64,000 bases of DNA from NCBI RefSeq assembly GCF_028464065.1, contig NZ_CP116808.1, forward strand, positions 1,007,886 to 1,071,885. The letters are read 5' to 3'. The translations under genes were made by a program, and so were the position numbers. Each line of letters starts with the position of its first letter. Within the stretch, counting starts at the first letter, position 1. Positions 1,077 to 63,345 of the stretch are shown piece after piece. This DNA comes from Saprospira sp. CCB-QB6 (GTDB taxonomy: Bacteria; Bacteroidota; Bacteroidia; Chitinophagales; Saprospiraceae). The notes beneath the pieces were generated by a model that saw only the letters and a program-made list of their open reading frames with translations, was not told the DNA's origin and searched no databases.

Positions 1077-1077
1077 T

Positions 1078-1262
1078 GTTTTGGGGCCTCCGCAGCAAAG
1101 CTGCGGCGCTATGCTTCGGGGCTCGCAGGTCTGCTCGGCCCTGCAGGCAGGCTTTGCCTGCCTTTGGTCTGGCCCTTCGGGCCACCCGCTCCGCAGCGCT
1201 AGGCCAAACAAAAGGCAGCCTGTAGCTGCCCCAAAAGCCCTGCAAGCAGGGCAAAAGTTTTG
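1078..1262 (+). repeat. GC-rich repeat element R1
   Basis: ttttggggcctccgcagcaaagctgcggcgctatgcttcggggctcgcaggtctgctcggccctgcagg...ctgtagctgccccaaaag. Confidence 0.8.
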
Positions 1263-7267: not shown

Positions 7268-8401
7268 CTACTCCAACTTTTCTAAACCCCCAAATTCCGC
7301 CTGCCCCTTAACCAACATGGCTTTCCTAGCCGATAATTCTACCCGCTCCGATTTTTGCAAACAACTAAAGTCCGCCGCTAAGATCTCTGCCAATTCCGCC
7401 AAAACTTCTTCCCGACTCAACCAATACTGCTCACTCAAAAAGATGTCATCCAATAAGGCCTGCTTTAAAGGAGCTAAGGCCTCATCTAAATTCAAATCAC
7501 TGCGATAAAGCGCTTCTAAGCGCTCAAAAAGAGCCAAATGCTGCCCCCGACCCAATAAACTATATTGCCGCCCCTCTTCCAATAAGGCAATGCTCCAACT
7601 CCCCAATGAATAGCCCAAACTATCCAAGGGATAGGCCGCATAAAAAAGTTCTACCAATTGGTCGTCTAAACTATCCGGACTTTGCTGCGCCCGCGCCCCC
7701 CAATATTTATAATCCCGATACAATTTGTACTCGGTCTTTGGCGAAGGCAAATAGACCAAAAAACCCGGAAATACATGGTTGAGCCAAAAGAAATTAGCCA
7801 AACTATCCGCCGAACTCAAGGCCAAGGCCTCATTTACCCGCTCCTCTAAGGCCAACTCCAATTTTTCGCCCCTCCGATAAACCAACCGAAAAGCAGGCAA
7901 GCTCTCTATCGCCGCCGCCTCCCGCTGATACTGCTTGAGCTCTCCCGCCAACTCATCCCCAAAAAAGAAGTGCAAACGCCGATCTAACCAAAGCCGCTGC
8001 AAATCCTCCGACGGCAGGCTGTCAAAACTCAAACAACCCCCAAATAACCAGCCCTTATGCCCATCCGCCGCCTCTACTTCTAACCAAGGCTCCCGATAAT
8101 CTACCCCCTCCAACCGAATTAAACTCTCCGCCTTGCTCATCCGCCCCAAATACCGAAAACTACTGCCTTTGTGGTAGGTCCGCAAACTTTCTGCTGCCCA
8201 ATCTGGCGCCGCTTTTAACTCCCCCTCCCGACTACTCAAACTCAAAGATGCTCCCCGCCCATCTGTCGATAAATATAGGCTACTATCGGCCGTTTCTGCC
8301 AAGGGCTCCTCCGCAGAAATAGGCAATTCTTTAGCCTTTTCCTCACTGCAAGCCCCCAACAACAACAGGGCAAAAAAATATAGATATAACTGCTTGTTCA
8401 T
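7268..8401 (-). CDS. hypothetical lipoprotein (377 aa)
   Basis: Signal peptide with a lipobox (LLLLGACSEE). No known domain recognised. Confidence 0.55.
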   Translation of the reverse strand: MNKQLYLYFFALLLLGACSEEKAKELPISAEEPLAETADSSLYLSTDGRGASLSLSSREGELKAAPDWAAESLRTYHKGSSFRYLGRMSKAESLIRLEGVDYREPWLEVEAADGHKGWLFGGCLSFDSLPSEDLQRLWLDRRLHFFFGDELAGELKQYQREAAAIESLPAFRLVYRRGEKLELALEERVNEALALSSADSLANFFWLNHVFPGFLVYLPSPKTEYKLYRDYKYWGARAQQSPDSLDDQLVELFYAAYPLDSLGYSLGSWSIALLEEGRQYSLLGRGQHLALFERLEALYRSDLNLDEALAPLKQALLDDIFLSEQYWLSREEVLAELAEILAADFSCLQKSERVELSARKAMLVKGQAEFGGLEKLE

Positions 8402-8411
8402 CTTGTTTTAT

Positions 8412-8570
8412 TTTTGGGGCAGCCCCTCCCGTTGGTCGGGTCGCTACGTTTCGGGGCTCGCAAGCCTGCTCGGCCCTTCGGCGGCAATGCCGCCTCGGTC
8501 TGGCCCTACGGGCCACTGCTGCACATCGCTCAGCCAAAAAGACTGGGCTAAAGCCCAGCGAAAATAGAAG
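8412..8570 (+). repeat. GC-rich intergenic repeat element R3 (TTTTGGGGC... family)
   Basis: Starts ttttggggcagcccctccc 10 bp from the start codon of the 7268..8401 gene. It shares the modules gctcgcaagcctgctcggccc and ggtctggccctacgggccactgctgcacatcgct with the other copies. Confidence 0.75.
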
Positions 8571-8788
8571 CATCGCTGCGCGAAGGGCTATCCATGAGCA
8601 GGCAAAGCCGCCTGATATAAATAGCTGCTGCCTAAAACCAAATATCAAAAGCAAAATGCTATTAAACAGCGATTTAGTGAGGCTTGCCGCCCCACTCTAA
8701 TGGAAAATAAATAGAAAAGGACCAAAATACAAAAGAATAGGCAGACCCTCTAAACGTTTTGGACCAAGGGCCAAGCAGTAATCCCCTC

Positions 8789-9489
8789 TGGGAATTTCCC
8801 CAGCTCAATCGGAGGCGGCAAATTAGCCTGGGGAAAATCCCCAAGGTGTTTGGATTTTTCCGATTAGCTTGGGGAAAATCCCCAAGGCGTTTGGATTTTT
8901 CCGATTAGCGTGGGGAAAATCCCCAAGGCATTTGGATTTTTCCGATTAGCTTGGGGAAAATCCCCATGGTGTTTGGATTTTTCCGATTAGCTTGGGGAAA
9001 ATCCCCATGGTGTTTGGATTTTTCCGATTAGCGTGGGGAAAATCCCCATGGTGTTTGGATTTTTCCGATTAGCTTGGGGAAAATCCCCAAGGCATTTGGA
9101 TTTTTCCAATTAGCGTGGGGAAAATCCCCAAGGTGTTTGGATTTTTCCAATTAGCGTGGGGAAAATCCCCATGGTGTTTGGATTTTTCCGATTAGCTTGG
9201 GGAAAATCCCCAAGGCATTTGGATTTTTCCGATTAGCGTGGGGAAAATCCCCAAGGCATTTGGATTTTTCCGATTAGCTTGGGGAAAATCCCCAAGGCAT
9301 TTGGATTTTTCCGATTAGCGTGGGGAAAATCCCCAAGGCATTTGGATTTTTCCGATTAGCTTGGGGAAAATCCCCATGGTGTTTGGATTTTTCCGATTAG
9401 CGTGGGGAAAATCCCCATGGCATTTGGATTTTTCCGATTAGCGTGGGGAAAATCCCCAAGGCATTTGGATTTTTCCGATTAGCTTGGGA
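8789..9489 (+). repeat. tandem array of about 16 x 41/42-bp units (GGGGAAAATCCCCAAGGYRTTTGGATTTTTCCRATTAGCKT) with leader aatcggaggcggcaaattagc
   Basis: Read directly: the period is 41 bp, with occasional 42-bp units carrying an extra T. Each unit holds two small palindromes, GGGGAAAATCCCC and TTGGATTTTTCCRA. Variation is confined to four positions (a/t, yr, g/a, t/g). No unique spacers are present and no frame stays open. Confidence 0.9.
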
Positions 9490-9593
9490 TAGTTGTCTAA
9501 GGCCCTATCTTTTTTTTCTGGACCGACCCTACTAGGGTTTAGCTAGAGTTATTTAGGGGGCAAATAAAGGAGTTTGTTGCAACTCCAAAAAGT

Positions 9594-9666: not shown

Positions 9667-10434
9667 TTAGACCCCAGTGAGTTGGTCCCAAATTTCGACA
9701 TGTAGGCGGCTACACATTCTAATTTGTTCTCGGATACAGATTTCGGCCACCATTTTATTGCGTTGGAGCAGGGCTTCTAGGCTATCGGCAGCGGGCATAA
9801 GGACCAATTGTTCTTTTTTGATGAGGCCGGGCGTTAAGAAATCCCGTTGAATTTCTTCAAAATCGCTAGCTTGGGCAATCACAAACTTAAAGATGGTTCC
9901 TTTTTCTTGGGCCAAGACTTGGAGGGCTTGGGGAACAAGGCGTTTTTGCTTGGGCATGCCAGAGTTTTGGAGTTTTGGGGAACAATTCCAGTAGCTGACC
10001 CTTTCTAATAAGGAAGAAGAGGGGACAAAACAGCCATTGGTTTCTACCTCAATGATAGGGCGGAGGCCCTGTCGTTCTTGTTCTAAGAAGCTTAGAAAGG
10101 CGGCAATGCGTTTATCTTGTAGGAGAGGTTCTCCCCCAGTAATAACTAAGTGCACGCCTTGGGCCAATCGTTGGCTAAAGGCTAATTCTTGGTCTAGGCG
10201 TTGGAGTAATTGAGGGAAGGGAAGGCTTTCGCCCTTCATCCAGACCTCCATAGTGTCGCAGATCCAGCTGGCGCCATCATGCAGTTGTCCGTCTTTTTCG
10301 GCACCTTTCCCGCCGCAGATCAGGTTGCAGCCAGAGAGGCGGAGGAAGATAGCGGGCACGCCCATAGTTTGGCCTTCTCCTTGAAGGCTGTAAAAGTATT
10401 CGCTAACAGCGAGTAGAGTAGGCATTTTTGGCAT
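9667..10434 (-). CDS. queE: 7-carboxy-7-deazaguanine synthase (radical SAM, queuosine pathway)
   Basis: The N-terminal signature E.F.S.QGEG..G.P..F.R.SGCNL is present. The unusual Cx14CxxC cluster CNLICGGKGAEKDGQLHDGASWICDT is known from the QueE subfamily. Confidence 0.75.
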   Translation of the reverse strand: MPKMPTLLAVSEYFYSLQGEGQTMGVPAIFLRLSGCNLICGGKGAEKDGQLHDGASWICDTMEVWMKGESLPFPQLLQRLDQELAFSQRLAQGVHLVITGGEPLLQDKRIAAFLSFLEQERQGLRPIIEVETNGCFVPSSSLLERVSYWNCSPKLQNSGMPKQKRLVPQALQVLAQEKGTIFKFVIAQASDFEEIQRDFLTPGLIKKEQLVLMPAADSLEALLQRNKMVAEICIREQIRMCSRLHVEIWDQLTGV

Positions 10435-10477: not shown

Positions 10478-10612
10478 GGCAATTGGCCTAGCGATGTGCA
10501 GCAGTGCCGCGAAGCGGCAGACCGAGGCCGTTAGGCCGAAGGGCCGAGCAGGCTTGCGAGCTGCGAAACGTAGCGCCGCAAGGCGCAGGCCGCAGCGGAG
10601 GCCCCAAAAAAA
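10478..10612 (-). repeat. GC-rich intergenic repeat element R4
   Basis: Carries ggcctagcgatgtgcagcag...ggccgagcaggcttgcgagctgcgaaacgtagcgcc...ggaggccccaaaaaaa. It is the reverse complement of the family consensus. Confidence 0.75.
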
Positions 10613-15106: not shown

Positions 15107-15325
15107 TTTGGGGCCTGCGGTGGGCGGTTACTCCCTTCGGTCGTCGAACTGCGAACTAAAGTTCTTGTTGTCGTTGCGCAGCTCGCTGCTGTTTTGGGGC
15201 CTCCGCCTCGCTGCGCTCGTCGGCGCTACGTTGCGCAGCTCGCTACTCGCTCGGCCCTGCGGCCTGACGGCCTTGGTCTGCGGCTGCGCCGCACTGCTGC
15301 ACATCGCTAGGCCAAAGGCTGGCCC
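15107..15325 (+). repeat. GC-rich repeat elements R5a+R5b (two adjacent units)
   Basis: The first unit (15107-15195) contains ggtcgtcgaactgcgaactaaagttcttgttgtcg, which is the reverse complement of the same module at about 21300-21345. The second unit (15196-15325) is near-identical to R22. Confidence 0.75.
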
Positions 15326-18559: not shown

Positions 18560-18702
18560 GGCCCTACGCTTTGGCCTAGCGATCTGCAGCAGTGGCCGTT
18601 AGGCCAGACCCAGGCGCTGCAAGCGCCGCAGGGCCGAGCAGACCTGCGAGCTGCGAAAGGTAGCGCCGACGAGCGTAGCGAGGCGGAGGCCCCAAAAATA
18701 AA
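18560..18702 (-). repeat. GC-rich repeat element R6
   Basis: Family modules ggcctagcgatctgcagcagtggcc...gggccgagcagacctgcgagctgcgaaaggtagcgcc...ggaggccccaaaaa. Confidence 0.75.
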
Positions 18703-21177: not shown

Positions 21178-21358
21178 TTATGAGGGTTTTAACCTACAGG
21201 CCCGAAGGGCCGCAGGCCTAGCGATGCGGCGGGGTGGCCCGAAGGGCCAGACCAAGGCGCTGCAAGCGCCGCAGGGCCGAGCAGCCTTGCGAGCCCCAAA
21301 GCGACAACAAGAACTTTAGTTCGCAGTTCGACGACCAAAGGGAGTAACGCCCCCAAAA
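21178..21358 (-). repeat. GC-rich repeat element R7
   Basis: Includes a tgagggttttaacctacagg module and the cgacaacaagaactttagttcgcagttcgacgacc module, ending gcccccaaaaat. Confidence 0.7.
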
Positions 21359-23802: not shown

Positions 23803-23955
23803 TTTTGGGGCCCGCGGCCGGCTAGCCCTTGGCGAGGCGGCCGCCGCTATGCTGCGGGGCTCGCAAGGCTGCTCGGCCCTGCGGGCATCACTGCGTTTCG
23901 CCCTCGGTCTGCGGCTATGCCGCCCCCCTTCGCAGCGCTGGGCCGCTCACCCTTC
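23803..23955 (+). repeat. GC-rich repeat element R8
   Basis: ttttttggggcccgcggccggc...gctatgctgcggggctcgcaaggctgctcggccctgcggg... Confidence 0.75.
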
Positions 23956-25239: not shown

Positions 25240-25385
25240 ATTGGCCTAGGGATGTGGAGGGGTGGCCGCAGGCCAGACCGAGCCAGCTTGCTGGCGAAGG
25301 GCCGAGCGAATAGCGAGCCCCGCAGCAGCCCGGCGGGCCCTTGCCGCAGCGCAGCAAGGCAAAAGGGGCCCGCAGGCCCCTAAAA
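25240..25385 (-). repeat. GC-rich repeat element R9
   Basis: Contains gggccgagcgaatagcgagccccgcagc, the reverse complement of gctcgctattcgctcggccc. Confidence 0.7.
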
Positions 25386-29054: not shown

Positions 29055-29200
29055 CAGTTAGGGGGCGCGAAGCGCCCGGCTGAGCGGCGGGAGCAGGGCC
29101 GCCGCAGGCGGCAGACCAAAGCCCGCAGGGCTGCAGGGCCGAGCGACCTGCGAGCTGCGGACTGGCGCGACCCGACCGCAGGGAGGGGCAGCCCCAAATA
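29055..29200 (-). repeat. GC-rich repeat element R10
   Basis: gcgacccgaccgcagggaggggcagccccaaa is the reverse complement of tttggggctgcccctccctgcggtcgggtcgc. Confidence 0.75.
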
Positions 29201-31139: not shown

Positions 31140-32048
31140 ATGAAATCTTTCTTTAAATTTCTATACTACTTCCTTAGTTCTAAGGTATTTCTCAAGAATA
31201 TTGGGATGATGATCGGCATCGCCTTGCTGAGCTTTGTCCTCCTCTTTTGGGTTATTTTGCCCTCTTATACTCGACACAATGAGTCCATCGAGGTACCCGA
31301 TATCAAAGGCCTTTCGGTCAAAAATGCCGAGCGCCAACTCAAAAGCCGAAAGCTTCGCCTAGTGGTGACCGACACAATTTATGATGCCAAGAGAAACCCC
31401 GGCATTATCCTCAAACAATCGCCCGAAGCCAATAGCCGCGTTAAACCCAACCGCAGCATTTACCTAACGGTCAACTCCAATAGTGCGCCCCCCGTCAATA
31501 TCTATTATAATGAGATCATTGGCCGCCCCCTCAATTTTGTCGAGAAGAAATTTAGAGCCCTCGGCCTCAAAATTGGCCAACTCAAGTATGTCGATGGAGG
31601 TGGAGAAAATACCGTGGCCGCCGCCTACACCAAAGATAAAATTCTCATCTTTAAGGAGGCCGATCCTAGTAAGGGCGAACGCCGCCCCAAACAACCTTAT
31701 CAACTCAAACAAGGCGATAAGATTGATCTCGAACTCTATAAAGGAAAGGATAGTGGCAAAAAAACGATTCCCGACCTCAGTTGCATGATTTTCTCCGAGG
31801 CCGAATTCTCAATCAAAGCCAATGCTTTTTATATTGGCACCGTGAGCTATGGCCCCAATATCATTGATACCATGAATGCCTATGTGGTCCGCCAATCGCC
31901 CTCTGCTGCCTCTAAAGCAAGCATGGGCGCAGGAATCGACATCTGGCTCTCTGCCGAAAAACCCGAAGTTTGCAACGAAATGAACCAAGAAGATGCTCCC
32001 AATAGCGGAGATACTTTTGATGATGATTTTGGCGGAATCGGCGGCTAA
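31140..32048 (+). CDS. PASTA domain-containing membrane protein
   Basis: An N-terminal TM helix followed by segments with the PASTA-like pattern (VPDIKGLSVKNAERQL..LRLVV). Confidence 0.55.
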   Translation: MKSFFKFLYYFLSSKVFLKNIGMMIGIALLSFVLLFWVILPSYTRHNESIEVPDIKGLSVKNAERQLKSRKLRLVVTDTIYDAKRNPGIILKQSPEANSRVKPNRSIYLTVNSNSAPPVNIYYNEIIGRPLNFVEKKFRALGLKIGQLKYVDGGGENTVAAAYTKDKILIFKEADPSKGERRPKQPYQLKQGDKIDLELYKGKDSGKKTIPDLSCMIFSEAEFSIKANAFYIGTVSYGPNIIDTMNAYVVRQSPSAASKASMGAGIDIWLSAEKPEVCNEMNQEDAPNSGDTFDDDFGGIGG

Positions 32049-32103
32049 AACAATCCTCCTCTCCCGCTAATCTTCTTTTCTGATTAGCTACATATAGCAG
32101 CAA

Positions 32104-32138
32104 AATAGCCTTCTAGTTTTTAGACTAGAAGGCTGTTT
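32104..32138 (+). terminator. rho-independent terminator
   Basis: Hairpin AGCCTTCTAGT TTTT AGACTAGAAGGCT followed by T7. Confidence 0.65.
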
Positions 32139-32292
32139 TTTTGGGGCTGCCCCTCCCTGCGGTCGGGTCGGGCTGTTTCGCAGCTCGCTATTCGCTCGGC
32201 CCTTCGGCGCAAAGCGCCTCGGTCTGGCCCTGCGGGCCACTGCTGTCCATCCCTCAGCCGATGCTCTGGGCTTCGCCCAGACTGGAAGCGGG
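32139..32292 (+). repeat. GC-rich repeat element R11
   Basis: ttttggggctgcccctccctgcggtcgggtcgggctgtttcgcagctcgctattcgctcggccc... This is near-identical to R20 at 54877. Confidence 0.8.
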
Positions 32293-32384
32293 ATTGCTGC
32301 TCTATCCCCTCCAATAATGACTAAAGGCAAAAGAGCATTGCCCTTTTTCTGTTGATTTGGACCAAAGTTTAGCTGCTCATCCCC

Positions 32385-32799
32385 CTTGGGGATTCCCCCA
32401 AGCCAATCGGAGGCGGCAAATTAGCATGGGGAAATTCCCCATGGCGATCGGAGGCGGCAAATTAGCATGGGGAAATTCCCCATGGCGATCGGAGGCGGCA
32501 AATTAGCGTGGGGAAATTCCCCATGGCGTTTGGATTTTTCCGATTAGCCTGGGGAAAATCCCCAAGGCGTTTGGATTTTTCCGATTAGTGTGGGGAAATT
32601 CCCCATGGCGTTTGGATTTTTCCGATTAGCGTGGGGAAATTCCCCATGGCGTTTGGATTTTTCCGATTAACGTGGGGAAATTCCCCATGGCGTTTGGATT
32701 TTTCCGATTAGCGTGGGGAAATTCCCCATGGCGTTTGGATTTTTCCGATTAGCCTGGGGAAATTCCCCATGGCGTTTGGATTTTTCCGATTAACGTGGG
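32385..32799 (+). repeat. tandem array 2: about 9-10 x 41-bp units (GGGGAAATTCCCCATGGCG...), homologous to array 1
   Basis: The leader ccaatcggaggcggcaaattagc is followed by three hybrid units (ggggaaattccccatggcgatcggaggcggcaaattagcat). These are followed by units of the array-1 type. The tail gggatagctgtctaaggccctatcttttttttctggaccg matches the array-1 tail at 9486-9535. Confidence 0.9.
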
Positions 32800-33159
32800 A
32801 TAGCTGTCTAAGGCCCTATCTTTTTTTTCTGGACCGCCCCTACTACAGATCAGCTAGGCTCGCTTAAAAACAAAATATTGAAAACCCTTGTATTCTTGGG
32901 CCAAGAATCCTGCAGCCTAAAGGCCGCAGGGCCATAGCTGTAGGTTGAAACCTACAGCCAATTAACGAATGCATTTTAATATAGTATGCAGGGTTAAAAC
33001 CCTCCATAAACAAACATCTTCTAGGCTGCCTAAATCATAAATGCAGCAATTCAGAGGGCTGTTAAAAGCTGTGGAGGGTTTCAACCCTCCACGCTATGGA
33101 TCTAGGCTGTTTTTTGTTGTCTGGCTGTAGGTTTCAACCTACAGACCTCATTGGAGATG

Positions 33160-33300
33160 GCCGAAGGCCAAATGGCCTAGCGATGTGCAGCAGTGGCCGT
33201 CAGGCCAGACCAAGCGGGCCTAAGCCCGCGCAGGGCCGAGCGAATAGCGAGCTGCGGAACGTAGCGCCGCAAGGCCGTAGGCCGCAGCGGAGGCCCCAAA
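33160..33300 (-). repeat. GC-rich repeat element R12
   Basis: ggcctagcgatgtgcagcagtggcc...gggccgagcgaatagcgagctgcggaacgtagcgcc...ggaggccccaaaac. Confidence 0.75.
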
Positions 33301-33305
33301 ACAGA

Positions 33306-36014
33306 TTAATTCTCTTTATTGGAATGCTGCAATTGCTTTTGAGCTTCTCGTTCTTGGCCAAAGGTCAGAATATGGCGAATAAAATCGAAGGGTTGATAGC
33401 CATTGATTGCCGTTTGGTGGAAGATGCAGGTAGCGGGCGTCATGCCGGGCAAAGAATTGACCTCGATGACGAGGGTTTCGGCACGGCCATCGGCATAAAT
33501 GCGGACAAAAGCATCGATTCGGGCATAGCCCGTAACGCCCAAAATGCGTGCGGCCTGCTCCAAATCTGCTTTGATTTGGGCCGCCAGGGGCGCGTATTCG
33601 AGTTCGCCAACAGCTAGGCGGGCGGGGGTAATATTTTGACCTTCTCCAGCCAAAAATTTCTCTTCCAGCGATAAAATCTCGCCAGAGGCTAGGGTTTCGG
33701 AAGGTTCAAAGACCTCATAGCGGATGCTTCCATCAGCCTCGTGATGGCAAAGTAGGCCCACCGTCACTTCTAGAAAGTGCAGGGCATCTTTTTGCTCAAC
33801 CAGCTGCTCTAAGAGGGCATATTCCTTTTGGGGAAACTCCTCTTTGGGTAGAATAGCTAGGCGATCTTGGGCAATTTGGGGCAGGGCTTCTTCCTCGCGG
33901 AAAAGGGCGGCCAGAAAGGCCTCCAGTTCTGCCTCATTTTTGATCTTTTTCACGGCAGAGCTACAGCCATCATCTACGGGCTTGGCGATCAGGGGCCAGC
34001 CCAGCTTTTCGCCAGCTTCTTTGAGGCAGGCTTGAGTTTGGGCCAGATAATCGCTTTTGCTCAAGAGGATTTGTTCGGTAACGGGTAGGCCTGCGGCTTT
34101 CAGCTTTTGTAGACTTTGATATTTATCGATCGTCAAGGCGGCAGAATCGGCCTCGGAGCCATTAAAAGCGATCCCTCTTTGGGCCAATTCTCTTTGGAGG
34201 GCGCCATCCTCACCGGGGCGGCCATGCAAAGCGATAAAGGCCAGGCGGGTCTCTTCCGCTAGGGCATCAAAAGAGAGTGGGCGGGGATCAAGGCGGCTAC
34301 TGCGGCCAGAAAACTGCTGAGCAATATGGGCCGTTTCTTGGCGAATCTGTTGGATAATGGGATGCACCTTATAATTCAGCAACTTATCGCGAATATCATC
34401 TGCATTATCCTTGAGCAAAAGGTTGATGGGCAGCTCATAGAGCTGTTGGTCATCGGCCTTGCCCGTAAGGAAAACGGGAAAGGGCAGGTAATTGGCCGAG
34501 CTGGCCAACTTTTCATAAATATTGCGGCCACTTTCTACCGAAATATGGCGCTCGGAAGAATATCCGCCAAGGATGACGGCCACCTTTTGGAGTTCGGAAA
34601 CCTCTCCTTCTAGGCGTTGCATCTCGCTTTCCAATTGGGCCAATAATTGGCCGTAGTTATTGGGGCGCAGGCATTTTCGGCTGCGGGCCAAGAGCGATCG
34701 GTGGATAATAAAGCTGAGAAAATGCGAGGGATTGAGGCCAATTTCGGCGGCTTGATGGAAAAAGAAAGAAGAAGGCAGCATACCCGAAGTGGTATTCGGG
34801 TCATTGAGAATAATGCGGCCATCGGCTTGGATAAAACCATCAATTCGGGCATAGACATCAAACTCTAGGAAGCGGAAAAGGCGTTCGCACTCTTGTCGGA
34901 TCGCTTGAATTTGTTCCTCGGGCAAATCGATAGGCGTCAACTTGCGAGAGAGTCCGGCCAGATACTTAGAACGGTAGTCAAAGAGCTCTTTGCCTTTGAT
35001 AATCTCGGTGGGGGGCAGAGCGATCGGTTGGCCGTCTTCATCTTGGATCACGACACAGGAAAACTCTCGGCCTTCGATAAAGCCTTCAAGTAAAACGCTT
35101 TCTTCTCGGTATTGGCTTTGTAGGTGGAGTTTGGGGCTATGTCCCTGCCCTAATTCCTTATCGAGTAGGGCCAGTAATTGCTCGGGATGGTAGAGCAATT
35201 GTTTATCTTTTTTGGGGCCTTGTACTTCTAGCGGGAACCCTAAGCCAGATCGGATATCAAGTAATTTGCGCATCCATTGGATCTGTTCCTCTCTATTCAT
35301 TTGCTGCCAATCTTGGGCGCTAATTTCGAGACCAAAGAAGGCATCTTCTAGGGCGGCGATAAGGTCTTCGGGTTGATCGACAATACTCACACCGATAGAA
35401 GAGCCTTGATTAGAGGGGCGAACGACTAGGGGGAAGCCCATTTCCTTTTTGAGCTGCTCCATATTGGGCAGTTGGCCGCTCCAGTCTTTGGCCCAGATTT
35501 GTTGGATGGGGGGGCTTTCGAAACCGCCAGCCTGCATCATCTTCTTTTGGAAACTTTTGTCCATGCCCAGACTACTTGCTCGAATGCCAGAGCCACTATA
35601 GGGGATGCCTAGGGCCTCTAACATGCCTTGGAGTTGGCCATCTTCGCCCCATTCGCCATGTAGGCTAAGGAAGGCAAAATCAATTAGTTCGGGTAATTCG
35701 CTAAAGCTAATTGGGCGACCAATTTGGCCGAGTAATTCCTTAGAAGCTTGTTTAGAGAGACCGAGACTTTCCACATAAATTTGAAAATGATGTGGGCTAG
35801 GTGGTAGGGCCTGCACGGGGGGATAAAAGTCGCGGATACTGCCTTTATAGAGATACTCCCAATCGAGTAGGCAAAGTTGGCCAAAGCTATCGACAAAAAT
35901 AGGGATAGGCCGAAAGAGTTGTTTATTTAGATTATCGTAGACGGTTCGGCCGCCTGCAAAGGCGATTTCGCGTTCGCGGGAAGGGCCGGCCAGAAAGATT
36001 CCAATAGTTAACAT
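33306..36014 (-). CDS. tandem D-alanine--D-alanine ligase-like protein (two complete Ddl/ATP-grasp modules fused, 902 aa)
   Basis: Two Ddl N-domain motifs are present (GIFLAGPSREREIAFAGGRTVYDNL and VAVILGGYSSERHISVESGRNIYEKL). There are two central LHG..GEDG..Q motifs and two ATP-grasp cores (GFPLVVRPSNQGSSIGVSIV and GWPLIAKPVDDGCSSAVKKI). The C-terminus has EVNSLPGMT. Confidence 0.7.
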   Translation of the reverse strand: MLTIGIFLAGPSREREIAFAGGRTVYDNLNKQLFRPIPIFVDSFGQLCLLDWEYLYKGSIRDFYPPVQALPPSPHHFQIYVESLGLSKQASKELLGQIGRPISFSELPELIDFAFLSLHGEWGEDGQLQGMLEALGIPYSGSGIRASSLGMDKSFQKKMMQAGGFESPPIQQIWAKDWSGQLPNMEQLKKEMGFPLVVRPSNQGSSIGVSIVDQPEDLIAALEDAFFGLEISAQDWQQMNREEQIQWMRKLLDIRSGLGFPLEVQGPKKDKQLLYHPEQLLALLDKELGQGHSPKLHLQSQYREESVLLEGFIEGREFSCVVIQDEDGQPIALPPTEIIKGKELFDYRSKYLAGLSRKLTPIDLPEEQIQAIRQECERLFRFLEFDVYARIDGFIQADGRIILNDPNTTSGMLPSSFFFHQAAEIGLNPSHFLSFIIHRSLLARSRKCLRPNNYGQLLAQLESEMQRLEGEVSELQKVAVILGGYSSERHISVESGRNIYEKLASSANYLPFPVFLTGKADDQQLYELPINLLLKDNADDIRDKLLNYKVHPIIQQIRQETAHIAQQFSGRSSRLDPRPLSFDALAEETRLAFIALHGRPGEDGALQRELAQRGIAFNGSEADSAALTIDKYQSLQKLKAAGLPVTEQILLSKSDYLAQTQACLKEAGEKLGWPLIAKPVDDGCSSAVKKIKNEAELEAFLAALFREEEALPQIAQDRLAILPKEEFPQKEYALLEQLVEQKDALHFLEVTVGLLCHHEADGSIRYEVFEPSETLASGEILSLEEKFLAGEGQNITPARLAVGELEYAPLAAQIKADLEQAARILGVTGYARIDAFVRIYADGRAETLVIEVNSLPGMTPATCIFHQTAINGYQPFDFIRHILTFGQEREAQKQLQHSNKEN

Positions 36015-40412: not shown

Positions 40413-40592
40413 TTTTTGGGGGCTGCCCCGCCAGTAGGCGGGTCGGGCTGTGTCGCAGCTCGCTGATCGCTCGGCCCTGCGCTTTTTCGCTGCGCTCAAA
40501 AGCTGGGTCTGGCCTGCGGCCACTGCTGTCCATCCCTCAGCCTGCGGGCCTTCGGCCCTTTTTGGCTGCAGGTTAAAACCTACAGCCAGAAT
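40413..40592 (+). repeat. GC-rich repeat element R13 (with ctgcaggttaaaacctacagcc hairpin module)
   Basis: ttttgggggctgccccgccagtaggcgggtcgggctgtgtcgcagctcgctgatcgctcggccc... This is near-identical to the core of R18. Confidence 0.8.
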
Positions 40593-43794: not shown

Positions 43795-43932
43795 GGCCCT
43801 ATTGGCCCAGCGCTGCGTAGCGGTGGCCGAAGGCCAGACCAGTGGCGCTATGCGCCGCAGGGCCGAGCAGACCTGCGAGCCGCGAAGCATAGCGGCGGCC
43901 AGCTTGCTGGCCGCGGGCCCCAAAAAAAACAG
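43795..43932 (-). repeat. GC-rich repeat element R15
   Basis: gggccgagcagacctgcgagccgcgaagcatagcggcggcc...gggccccaaaaaaaa. It overlaps the 3' end of the 43799..44467 ORF. Confidence 0.75.
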
Positions 43933-46123: not shown

Positions 46124-46290
46124 TTTTTGGGGCCCGCGGCCAGCAAGCTGGCAGGCGCTACGTTTCGCAGCTCGCAGGTTTGCTCGGCCCTGCAGCGCTA
46201 AAGCGCTTTGGTCTGGCCTTCGGCCACTGCTACACATCGCTAGGCCAATTGCCTAAAGGCCGAGGCGGCTCCGCCGCCCATCCCAACCGC
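46124..46290 (+). repeat. GC-rich repeat element R16
   Basis: ttttttggggcccgcggccagcaagctggcaggcgctacgtttcgcagctcgcaggtttgctcggccctgcagcgc... It creates a spurious in-frame N-terminal extension of the ferredoxin ORF. Confidence 0.75.
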
Positions 46291-48048: not shown

Positions 48049-48272
48049 CAGGGCGCGAAGCGCCCGCAGGCTGAGCTGCCGAAGCAGGGCCGCCGAAGGC
48101 GGCAGACCAAAGCGCTGAAAGCGCTGCAGGGCCGAGCAAACCTGCGAGCTGCGAAGTGGAGCGACCCGACCGATAATTCATGAGGGTTTTAACCCTCATT
48201 TTGTATCGCTTCGCAAAGCGATACCGCTTTGCGCTGGGTTTTAACCCGGCGGAAGGGGCAGCCCCAAAAAAA
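48040..48272 (-). repeat. GC-rich composite repeat element R17 (core + atgagggttttaaccctcat + gcaaagcgataccgctttgc modules)
   Basis: Its reverse complement is near-identical to 49683-49800 of R18. It ends ggcagccccaaaa 4 bp from the stop of the 48276..49664 gene. Confidence 0.8.
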
Positions 48273-49682: not shown

Positions 49683-49925
49683 TATTTTTTTGGGGCTGCC
49701 CCTTCCGCCGGGTTAAAACCCAGCGCAAAGCGGTATCGCTTTGCGAAGCGATACAAAATGAGGGTTAAAACCCTCATGAATTATCGGTCGGGTCGGGCTG
49801 TGTCGCAGCTCGCTGATCGCTCGGCCCTGCGCAAAATTTCGCTGCGCTCATTTTGCTTGGTCTGGCCTTCGGCCACTGCTATCCATCCCTCAGCCTGCGG
49901 GCGCTTCGCGCCCTGTCCCCTGCAA
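49683..49925 (+). repeat. GC-rich composite repeat element R18 (inverted copy of R17 modules plus R13-like core)
   Basis: ttttggggctgccccttccgccgggttaaaacccagcgcaaagcggtatcgctttgcgaagcgatacaaaatgagggttaaaaccctcatgaattatcggtcgggtcgggctgtgtcgcagctcgctgatcgctcggccc... Confidence 0.8.
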
Positions 49926-49960
49926 TTGGACCAAAATCCTAATTGAAGCCCTTCCCTTGC

Positions 49961-54852: not shown

Positions 54853-54876
54853 TTTATAACTTTATTTTGATCTAGT

Positions 54877-54996
54877 TTTGGGGCTGCCCCTCCCTATGGT
54901 CGGGTCGGGCTGTTTCGCAGCTCGCTATTCGCTCGGCCCTTCGGCGCAAAGCGCCTCGGTCTGGCCCTACGGGCCACTGCTGTCCATCCCTCAGCC
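54877..54996 (+). repeat. GC-rich repeat element R20 (near-identical to R11)
   Basis: ttttggggctgcccctccctatggtcgggtcgggctgtttcgcagctcgctattcgctcggccc...ccactgctgtccatccctcagcc. Confidence 0.8.
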
Positions 54997-55216
54997 AGAT
55001 TTAATCGCGCTGCTTTGGCCATAGTTTGCTATGAATTTTTGGCTAGGCCAGCTATTTTTTAAGGACATAGCCTTCGCTATGACCGAGAAAAATAGGGCCG
55101 ACTAGCGGGAAATTGCTGCAAACTATAAAAGTGAGTGCGCTTAAATTTGGCTATTACCTGCGGCGCTGCGCGCCTGCTAAACGCAAATTATCTCCTTTTG
55201 GACCAAATTACCACTT

Positions 55217-55967: not shown

Positions 55968-56092
55968 TTTTGGCCTAGCGATGTGCAGCAGTGGCCCAAA
56001 GGGCCAGACCAAAGCCCGAAGGGCTGAAGGGCCGAGCGAATAGCGAGCTGCGCAACGTAGCGCCGACGACCAAAGGGAGGCGGAGGCCCCAA
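55968..56092 (-). repeat. GC-rich repeat element R21
   Basis: ggcctagcgatgtgcagcagtggcc...gggccgagcgaatagcgagctgcgcaacgtagcgcc...ggaggccccaaaac. Confidence 0.75.
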
Positions 56093-56097
56093 AACCA

Positions 56098-63030: not shown

Positions 63031-63194
63031 GCATTTATCTTTAGCTTTTCGGACTTTCTCCAGATTTGTTAGCCCAGCCCCCAATTTTTCCACCTCCTCT
63101 CCCCTCTTTTATACTCCCTCAATTTCTACTGTTTTGGGGCCTATCAGCAAAGATGATTTAAAGGTTTTCTTCTCTTTATGTTGCTTACTGTTTT

Positions 63195-63345
63195 TTTGGG
63201 GCCTCCGCCTCGCTTCGCTCGTCGGCGCTACGTTCCGCAGCTCGCTGTTCGCTCGGCCCTTCGCCAGCTTCGCTGGCTCGGTCTGGCCTACGGCCACTGC
63301 TGCACATCGCTAGGCCTGCGGCCCTTCGGGCCTGTAGGACGAGAA
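63195..63345 (+). repeat. GC-rich repeat element R22 (near-identical to R5b)
   Basis: tttttggggcctccgcctcgcttcgctcgtcggcgctacgttccgcagctcgctgttcgctcggccc...ccactgctgcacatcgctaggcc. Confidence 0.8.

Follow-up and report, generated by a model that had tools for sequence, protein, structure and literature searches.

Hairpin minisatellite arrays between conserved leader and tail modules form a multi-copy, copy-number-variable locus type in Saprospira

We analyzed a stretch of 64,000 nucleotides from the chromosome of Saprospira sp. CCB-QB6 (the window), which contains two tandem arrays of a 41-nt hairpin-forming unit (array 1 and array 2). Each array is embedded in the same succession of modules: a GC-rich element, a small hairpin, a leader, the array units and a tail. 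Our results support the conclusion, proposed in a first-pass annotation of the sequence, that this composite is a multi-copy locus type. We consider it probable that the composite is a lineage-restricted, non-coding, modular interspersed repeat of the same general kind as the BOX elements of pneumococci and the MIRUs of mycobacteria, and that its internal 41-nt module is a minisatellite changing by slippage and unequal exchange.

To describe the arrays quantitatively, we combined Tandem Repeats Finder with parsing in a fixed register. The program places the 41-bp arrays at 8822-9488 (array 1; 16.3 copies, 94% matches, score 1110) and at 32420-32799 (array 2; 9.3 copies, 93% matches, score 571). 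They are separated by 22.9 kb, in agreement with the 23 kb given in the first pass. In exact register, array 2 comprises 10 units (32386-32795), and its tail begins at 32796. In both arrays the units are oriented head-to-tail and abut with a period of exactly 41 nt; as had been noted from the sequence, there are no spacers between units in either array, by Tandem Repeats Finder or by register parsing. At 8/8 loci parsed, in the window and in the relatives described below, the distance from the anchor TTGGACCAA to the tail start TGGGATAG is 29 nt plus an integer number of 41-nt units, the unit counts being 17, 10, 13, 9, 2, 2, 2 and 13. The arrays are non-coding, as their period is not divisible by 3 and every frame contains stops; no open reading frame of 50 aa or more lies within them.

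End-to-end alignment of the two loci shows that array 2 is indeed a second copy of the same locus type, with homologous 5′ and 3′ flanks and, as had been claimed, a plus-strand GC element and a CTGGGC/GCCCAG hairpin upstream of each array. The distance from the GC element to the first unit, originally given as 100-230 bp, is ~124 bp for array 2 but ~250 bp for array 1. Exact matches to the leader motif AATCGGAGGCGGCAAATTAGC are found at 8807 and 32405, and further matches at 32446 and 32487 each carry one mismatch. A 29-nt tail motif is identical at 9497 and 32808; 0 occurrences of either motif are expected from shuffles. The leaders are homologous, as the first-pass annotation stated, but they are not a fixed module: the final 41 nt of the sequence that it called the leader are the first array unit, with a degenerate hairpin, and this unit is replaced by another unit type in one relative (see below). 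The array 1 leader is longer than that of array 2, and the two align clearly only over their last ~42 nt. The tail, which opens as a degenerate last unit, is common to both loci over about 62 nt rather than the 50 nt first estimated. Searches of the window with nhmmer profiles revealed no further copies of leader, unit or tail.

Two types of unit make up the arrays. The type A unit consists of TGGGGAAATTCCCCA, a 5-nt linker, ATCGGAGGCGGCAAATTAGC and 1 nt, while the type B unit consists of TGGGGAAA(A/T)TCCCCA, a 5-nt linker, TTTGG(A/C)TTTTTCC(G/A)ATTAGC and 1 nt; the 3′ end is therefore ATCGGAGGCGGCAAATTAGC in type A and TTTGGATTTTTCCGATTAGC in type B. The type B half-unit occurs 23 times in the window, confined to the two arrays. 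The composition is 1A+16B in array 1 and 3A+7B in array 2, and type A units lie 5′ of type B units without exception in the loci parsed. The hairpin core had been read as a perfect 12-bp palindrome containing GAATTC; closer inspection corrects this, since GGGGAAATTCCCC is 13 nt long and differs from its reverse complement, GGGGAATTTCCCC; a central A separates its two 6-nt arms, and the sequence within it is GAAATTC. Units 2 and 3 of array 2 (32427-32467 and 32468-32508) are hybrids that join a type B 5′ half to a type A 3′ half; the count of three hybrids reported earlier is reduced to these two when the leader's own copy is set apart. An AAAAT loop is present in 16/16 B units of array 1, and in 1/7 B units and 0/3 A units of array 2. 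The internal variants of array 1 form a mosaic with a gradient from neither end, no lag stands out as a higher-order (multi-unit) period in this array, and the most diverged units are those at the array edges.

The multi-copy status of the composite is established by related metagenomes. A single metagenome, Ga0193958, holds four loci, presumably of the same organism: orthologs of arrays 1 and 2, plus two loci, L011 and L013, whose flanking genes have no counterpart in the window and which are thus additional loci. Homology among array 2, its ortholog L012, L011 and L013 (the type-2 loci) is unbroken from the GC element through the small hairpin, leader, units and tail to ~100 nt beyond, the L013 contig ending within the GC element. 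Over the 166-bp segment at 32255-32420, which covers the small hairpin, the leader and most of the first unit, identity to array 2 is 94% for L012, 84% for L013 and 85% for L011. In both L011 and L013 the small hairpin reads CTGGGG..CCCCAG, a compensatory change from C-G to G-C. Between the conserved anchor, with its fixed 29-nt offset, and the conserved 62-nt tail, there are between 2 and 17 units. The basal form appears to be two units (A+B or B+B) between leader and tail, the tail itself being a decayed unit.

These additional loci bear directly on a simpler explanation, raised in the first pass as an outcome that would refute its proposal, in which the two arrays arose by plain segmental duplication of a junk minisatellite found in CCB-QB6 alone. 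Only two loci are present in the 64-kb window, and the unit is absent from 185,579 representative genomes (see below), as such a duplication would predict. We nevertheless regard it as very improbable, because it is contradicted by L011 and L013, with their unrelated flanks in a related metagenome, and because both window loci have orthologs, with conserved leader and tail, in relatives that are ~88-96% identical. In addition, a large indel distinguishes the leader of array 1 from that of array 2, and the two can be aligned only in part, indicating that they are not recent copies of each other.

Comparison of orthologous loci shows that the arrays are hypervariable. The four orthologs compared here (L003, L005, L012 and L020) are short-read metagenome assemblies, in which unit counts may be wrong but unit types and junctions should be real. 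For array 1, the orthologs contain 7A+6B (L003, a contig of an ENA metagenome, ~92% identity) and 0A+9B (L005, identical to L010, ~91%). For array 2, the composition is 10A+3B in L020, which comes from the sample that yielded L003 and is 96% identical over 9 kb, and 1A+1B in L012 (identical to L022, ~88%); in L012 the motifs are decayed, with a disrupted tail hairpin and mutated unit motifs. Total unit numbers are thus 17/13/9 for array 1 and 10/13/2 for array 2, and they always change by integer 41-nt units. The A and B blocks both grow and shrink between relatives, the B block having 16, 6 and 9 units at array 1 and 7, 3 and 1 at array 2. Within each of the three related genomes, expanded arrays share a dominant unit type (mostly B in CCB-QB6, mostly A in the organism of ERZ27275609, mostly B in that of Ga0193958), and the array 2 copy of Ga0193958 has only 1A+1B. 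Public short-read contigs from various samples (the Logan contigs L006, L007 and L008; L021 and L023) terminate within, or immediately ahead of, the array or the GC element. The repeats therefore break assemblies, and unit counts from metagenomes need caution.

The variation of both blocks also addresses the suggestion, made in the first-pass annotation, that units are added at the leader end by polar growth resembling CRISPR adaptation without spacers. Type A units, which resemble the leader, always lie 5′ of type B units, and the A block is expanded in L003 and L020, as polar growth would predict. However, B blocks vary as much as A blocks, so hypervariability is not confined to the leader end, and array 1 lacks a divergence gradient. 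The leader motif is simply the first unit, which is of type B in L005, so that AATCGGAGGCGGCAAATTAGC is absent from that locus. No spacers are present, and the 10 neighboring proteins include no cas-like or integrase products. The hybrids are explained by ordinary unequal exchange: their crossover points fall between CCCCATGGCG and ATCGG in the window, between CCCCA and GCTCAATCGG in L003, and between CCCCA(T/C)GGCA and ATCGG in L020, and these differences between loci point to independent recombination events. Polar growth is therefore, in our judgment, extremely improbable.

The distribution of the element is narrow. Two scans of 185,579 species-representative genomes (GTDB, a collection that does not include CCB-QB6), one with the hairpin pattern and one with the exact B half, gave 0 hits and 1 chance hit, in Desulfatibacillum; the unit is thus absent from this collection. 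Two scans of IMG/VR viral contigs did not find the unit, and blastn gave no match to the element in plasmid and phage databases, so there is no sign of an origin from a mobile element or phage. In Rfam 15, only tRNAs match in the window at the gathering threshold, and at E ≤ 1 over 32050-33000 there are only matches far below threshold, the best being tsr1 with 22 bits versus a threshold of 235. Profile searches with nhmmer detected neither leader, unit and tail nor diverged copies of them in ~110 kb of S. grandis-like sequence, including that of strain Lewin, which is 83-85% identical to the window. At the corresponding junctions, Lewin and two other S. grandis-like contigs have GC elements alone. 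A literature search on Saprospira repeats and on CCB-QB6 returned nothing relevant.

We next consider what the units could encode as RNA or DNA. Folding of a single B unit gives two hairpins (-19.8 kcal/mol, z = -3.4), and a B-unit dimer folds to -45.4 kcal/mol on the plus strand versus -29.8 kcal/mol on the complement. Whole-array folds have z-scores of -9.7 and -8.6 on the two strands and are dominated by pairing between self-complementary units; because folding is good on both strands, they say little about transcription. The unit folds, together with wobble intermediates and a majority U-G pair that fit the plus strand only, are consistent with an independent plus-strand non-coding RNA gene extending from the leader to the T-run of the tail, whose hairpins and GGA segments would form a multivalent sponge that binds an RNA-binding protein, its capacity being tuned by the number of units. 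Such a gene would also account for the retention of GGA and ATTAGC in both unit types, the strong conservation of the unit except in its linkers, the plus-strand hairpin followed by eight T residues in the tail, and the ability of leader and tail to pair and close the structure in minimal elements.

Other evidence makes an RNA gene of this kind unlikely. Motif scans found no promoter within the element, of either the sigma-70 or the Bacteroidetes TAnnTTTG type, and no Rfam family matches. The hairpin preceding the eight-T run has a 12-nt loop and an energy of -5.8 to -7.3 kcal/mol, with z > 0, and is no stabler than shuffled sequence; it is too weak, by a terminator scan and by folding, for the tail to be accepted as an intrinsic terminator. 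Covariation in the unit hairpins is not significant, the one compensatory pair among 30 distinct B units being matched by 51/500 shuffles. The closing helix between leader and tail pairs in different registers in the two leader types and is unsupported across loci, so we do not take it as evidence. Finally, the L012 copy is decayed, orthologous unit numbers span 2 to 17, and the GGA of B units is located in a stem rather than in a loop.

The inverted arms of the units could instead function as DNA, as clustered sites for a dimeric protein that recognizes TGGGGA/TCCCCA, such as a nucleoid-organizing, regulatory or segregation factor. Iterons and centromere-like sites are typically organized as tandem arrays, nearly all of the 68 units at the 8 loci share an invariant inverted-arm core, and ATTAGC is conserved in both unit types. 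Nevertheless, the spacing of the arms varies (5+3+5 in GGGGAAAATCCCC versus 6+1+6 in GGGGAAATTCCCC), and changes of the wobble type are not neutral for recognition of double-stranded DNA. The arrays are chromosomal and lie among housekeeping genes, copies with 2 units exist, and we found no conserved neighboring gene for a candidate binding protein. A role as protein-binding sites is thus quite improbable.

The composite consists, in order, of a REP-like GC-rich element, a small hairpin, a leader, 2 or more hairpin units (A, B), a tail and a 3′ extension. We propose that within it whole 41-nt units would be gained, lost and recombined through replication slippage and unequal homologous exchange between units. 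These two processes would yield fast copy-number change, homogenization within arrays, and A/B hybrids. The order of A before B would reflect template position only, not polar addition, and the hybrids of array 2 could have arisen when the first A unit and the first B unit underwent a single unequal exchange, the product of which was then duplicated. The composite would have been copied to several intergenic sites by some route, and it has no gene of its own. Any transcription would most likely be read-through, producing a hairpin-rich untranslated RNA. The element would have no dedicated function, and effects on neighboring genes, or rearrangement via dispersed patches of homology, would be by-products.

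Several observations weigh against this proposal. The count of loci in CCB-QB6 covers the 64-kb window only (2 loci), and we identified no mobilization mechanism, terminal inverted repeats or target-site duplication for the composite. No inverted repeat bounds the whole composite, the ends of the GC element co-varying like inverted termini. Direct repeats of TGGACC flank the array, but they do so at every locus and are thus part of the element rather than a target-site duplication. The copy numbers of L003, L005, L012 and L020 derive from assemblies of a kind prone to mis-assemble 41-bp arrays, and both window loci have been kept as orthologous loci in relatives ~88-96% identical. The stems have few changes, and these keep plus-strand pairing intact: the pair G24-C33 is A-U in L011 and G-U in L012, U-A replaces U23-G34 in 7 distinct B units, C-G, U-A or U-G occurs in the stem of the first unit, and the small hairpin changes from C-G to G-C. 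Units of both types are very strongly conserved in three lineages, except in the 5-nt linker (positions 16-20), at one loop position and at position 41, and this conservation could mean purifying selection rather than recent common descent. A fuller version of that idea, in which the locus is a transcribed, structured RNA or DNA element under selection, with unit number and A:B ratio tuned in each lineage, serving as a multivalent platform for a protein that binds the TGGGGA/TCCCCA hairpin, and with paired copies acting as homology patches that drive Saprospira rearrangements, seems to us a minor possibility.

The substitutions within units have a pattern of their own. Among units of both arrays and of L003, L005, L011-L013 and L020, they are mostly CpG-to-TpG/CpA transitions (type B: C19T, G20A, C33T, G34A, C40T; type A: C23T, C29T). 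Such a bias is possibly a signature of cytosine methylation at CpG followed by deamination, which would be unusual in a bacterium. Most unit variants are either transitions of this kind or fall in the 5-nt linker, at one loop position or at position 41, a pattern that could result from neutral mutation biased toward CpG or, equally, from constraint on all other positions.

Table 1. Coordinates of the composite loci and of the GC-rich elements in the window.
Feature	Position	Strand	Basis or remark
GC-rich ~125-nt element, CTCAGCC subfamily, 5′ end of array 2 composite	32139-32262	+	homology among array 2, L012 and L011 starts here; upstream sequence differs
Small hairpin CTGGGC-TTC-GCCCAG after GC element	32266-32280	+	read directly in sequence
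Array 2 leader	32281-32385	+	anchor TTGGACCAA at 32357-32365; first unit starts 29 nt after anchor start
Array 2 unit 1, degenerate type A (TTGGGGATTCCCCCAAGCCAATCGGAGGCGGCAAATTAGCA)	32386-32426	+	41-nt register parsing
Array 2 units 2-3, recombinant: B-type 5′ half TGGGGAAATTCCCCATGGCG, A-type 3′ half ATCGGAGGCGGCAAATTAGC	32427-32508	+	motif matches, register parsing
Array 2 units 4-10, seven type B	32509-32795	+	hairpin 1 TGGGGA-AAT/ATT-TCCCCA and hairpin 2 TTGGA-TTTT-TCCGA in each
Array 2 tail, common to all loci	32796-32857	+	degenerate unit start TGGGATAG, weak hairpin (-5.8 kcal/mol, z > 0), eight-T run, then CTGGACCG..CTAC..AGCTAG
3′ extension (..CTTAAAAACAAAATATTGAAAAC.CTTGTATT)	32858-32894	+	conserved among type-2 loci only
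GC-rich element upstream of array 1	8412-8535	+	same place in S. grandis Lewin, adjoining start of 377-aa gene
Small hairpin CTGGGC-TAAA-GCCCAG	8543-8558	+	sequence
Array 1 leader	8559-8787	+	anchor TTGGACCAA at 8759
Array 1, 17 units: one degenerate A, then 16 B	8788-9484	+	Tandem Repeats Finder, register parsing
Array 1 tail	9485-9546	+	motif, alignment, profile search
GC-rich element copies, first part of window	1077-1205, 2164-2271, 8412-8535, 10482-10609, 15192-15313, 18573-18697, 21215-21347		
GC-rich element copies, middle	23837-23945, 25240-25332, 29077-29199, 32139-32262, 33174-33304, 40415-40545, 43800-43925		
GC-rich element copies, last part	46125-46249, 48083-48172, 49785-49895, 54876-54999, 55972-56094, 63194-63316		

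The GC-rich element at the 5′ end of the composite is itself an interspersed repeat of ~125 nt. It occurs about once per 3.5 kb on both strands, usually directly after a T-run, with at least 17 copies in the window (Table 1). Two subfamilies, GGGGCTGCCCC...CTCAGCC and GGGGCCTCCGC...CTAGGCC, can be distinguished; the 5′ and 3′ ends co-vary, and the internal hairpins differ through compensatory changes. S. grandis Lewin carries the element as well, and no Rfam family matches it. The copy at 54876 is 97.5% identical to the one upstream of array 2 and has no array after it, indicating that the GC element alone does not specify an array. A possible relic of a further locus, TTGGACCAAAATC (49926-49938), lies ~30 nt after a plus-strand GC element (49785-49895) and hairpin, and no array follows it. 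Although it matches the leader anchor of L013, we dropped it as an array-less relic, since its extended similarity to leader and tail does not exceed that of shuffles; the match is probably due to chance.

GC elements also coincide with rearrangements. Relative to S. grandis Lewin-like genomes (against L001, L004, L014, L018 and L020), synteny is broken at 2164, 8535, 9665, 23803, 32042 and 33173; 5/6 of these breakpoints are at GC elements, and both arrays are located at such junctions. The S. grandis-like genomes join the 377-aa gene to the ligase gene and the PASTA gene to QueE, while in CCB-QB6 array 1 lies between the 377-aa gene and QueE, and array 2 between the PASTA gene and the ligase gene. 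L020 has still another partner past the minus-strand GC element downstream of array 2. This reciprocal exchange of partners would fit a history of one or more inversions that used GC elements or composite copies, followed by further rearrangements. Because Lewin has the same GC element beside the 377-aa gene, the leader-array-tail part may have been added beside a pre-existing GC element, or lost in S. grandis.

The gene contexts of the loci are unlike one another. In the window, whose proteins are WCL82237 to WCL82259 of the CCB-QB6 chromosome, array 1 lies between a gene for a 377-aa hypothetical protein (7268-8401, minus) and QueE (9667-10434, minus), and array 2 between a PASTA-domain gene (31140-32048, plus) and a gene for a 902-aa protein resembling a double D-Ala-D-Ala ligase (33306-36014, minus). 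The latter protein has two tandem sets of D-Ala-D-Ala ligase N- and C-domains, forming a doubled Ddl-like ATP-grasp enzyme, and is conserved across Saprospira. A Pfam scan of the 10 immediate flanking proteins assigned PASTA, RuvX, DUF4159, D-Ala-D-Ala ligase, Big_2, TraB/PrgY/GumN and epimerase domains, or left proteins unannotated; no cas, transposase or integrase proteins were found among these 10. A second hairpin family, stem-GTT(G/A/T)AAAC-stem (e.g., CTGTAGGTTGAAACCTACAG, GGAGGGTTTCAACCCTCC and GAGGGTTAAAACCCTC), is located downstream of array 2 and beside other GC elements (32930-33140, ~40565-40588 and 49700-49790). Elsewhere in the window, a 178-bp tandem duplication at 1783-2106, 99% identical, carries two copies of tRNA-His(GTG), at 1808-1882 and 1986-2060.

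If the minisatellite reading is correct, the arrays are an ordinary, previously undescribed bacterial minisatellite within a modular interspersed repeat, and the BOX/MIRU class, most of whose known examples come from Firmicutes and Actinobacteria, gains one from Bacteroidota. Practical uses would be few. The element could serve as a variable-number tandem repeat marker for typing Saprospira strains; it would also be a trap for short-read assembly, and by eye it could be mistaken for a CRISPR-like array. The wider context may outweigh the array itself: Saprospira genomes are dense in structured GC-rich elements, which are located at most of the interspecies synteny breakpoints observed.

It is instructive to compare the element with known systems. 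Like a CRISPR locus, it has a leader-like flank, direct repeats of similar length with a small palindrome, and a degenerate terminal repeat. Unlike CRISPR, the Saprospira arrays have no spacers and no cas or adaptation genes among the immediate neighbors scanned, they vary at both ends and in both unit types, and the "leader" motif is itself a unit. The many short repeated hairpins and GGA motifs in one non-coding stretch resemble CsrB/RsmZ RNAs, but no promoter, strong terminator or Rfam match was found for the Saprospira element, and the GGA of B units forms part of the hairpin 2 stem instead of being displayed in a loop. REP/BIME and MITE-type repeats are short, structured and intergenic, with insertion sites close to the ends of genes (PMC3049150), and the ~125-nt GC element at the 5′ end of the composite, with at least 17 copies per 64 kb and co-varying ends, looks similar to them. 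In contrast, neither terminal inverted repeats nor a target-site duplication can be detected for the leader-array-tail part, whose hairpin units are in direct, not alternating, orientation.

The closest parallels are with MIRU and BOX. The MIRUs of Mycobacterium tuberculosis are minisatellites with copy-number variation (PMC3635867). The Saprospira element likewise has units of roughly 40-100 bp in tandem at several intergenic loci, with copy numbers that differ between close relatives in whole units, although the sequences are unrelated. Its tandem units fall in the 10-100 bp range of minisatellites and variable-number tandem repeats, and their number differs between relatives, as judged from short-read assemblies. 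MIRU arrays are not known to lie between conserved leader and tail modules or beside a REP-like element.

Pneumococcal BOX elements, found in S. pneumoniae and S. suis, have the layout boxA-boxB(n)-boxC with a variable internal module (PMC3049150). Like them, the Saprospira element is a short non-coding sequence present at multiple intergenic sites, and in both cases fixed modules at the 5′ and 3′ ends enclose a variable number of internal modules of about 40-45 nt; both are predicted to form stem-loops, with terminal modules able to pair and an internal module that folds on itself; and both vary between strains and have no transposase of their own (PMC3049150). The likeness is one of layout; the Saprospira element is from Bacteroidota and BOX from Firmicutes. 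The Saprospira element also differs in having two internal unit types in a fixed A-then-B order, with up to 17 units, in being fused downstream of a separate and far more abundant GC-rich repeat, and in its copy number, which seems low (2 in 64 kb, at least 4 in the related metagenome). Membership in the streptococcal BOX family proper is very unlikely, because the phylum differs and the unit is absent from GTDB representative genomes. With its variable internal module and its location at unrelated intergenic sites, the element is nonetheless BOX-like in kind. By analogy, then, the element would work like BOX and MIRU, while very probably belonging by sequence to neither family.

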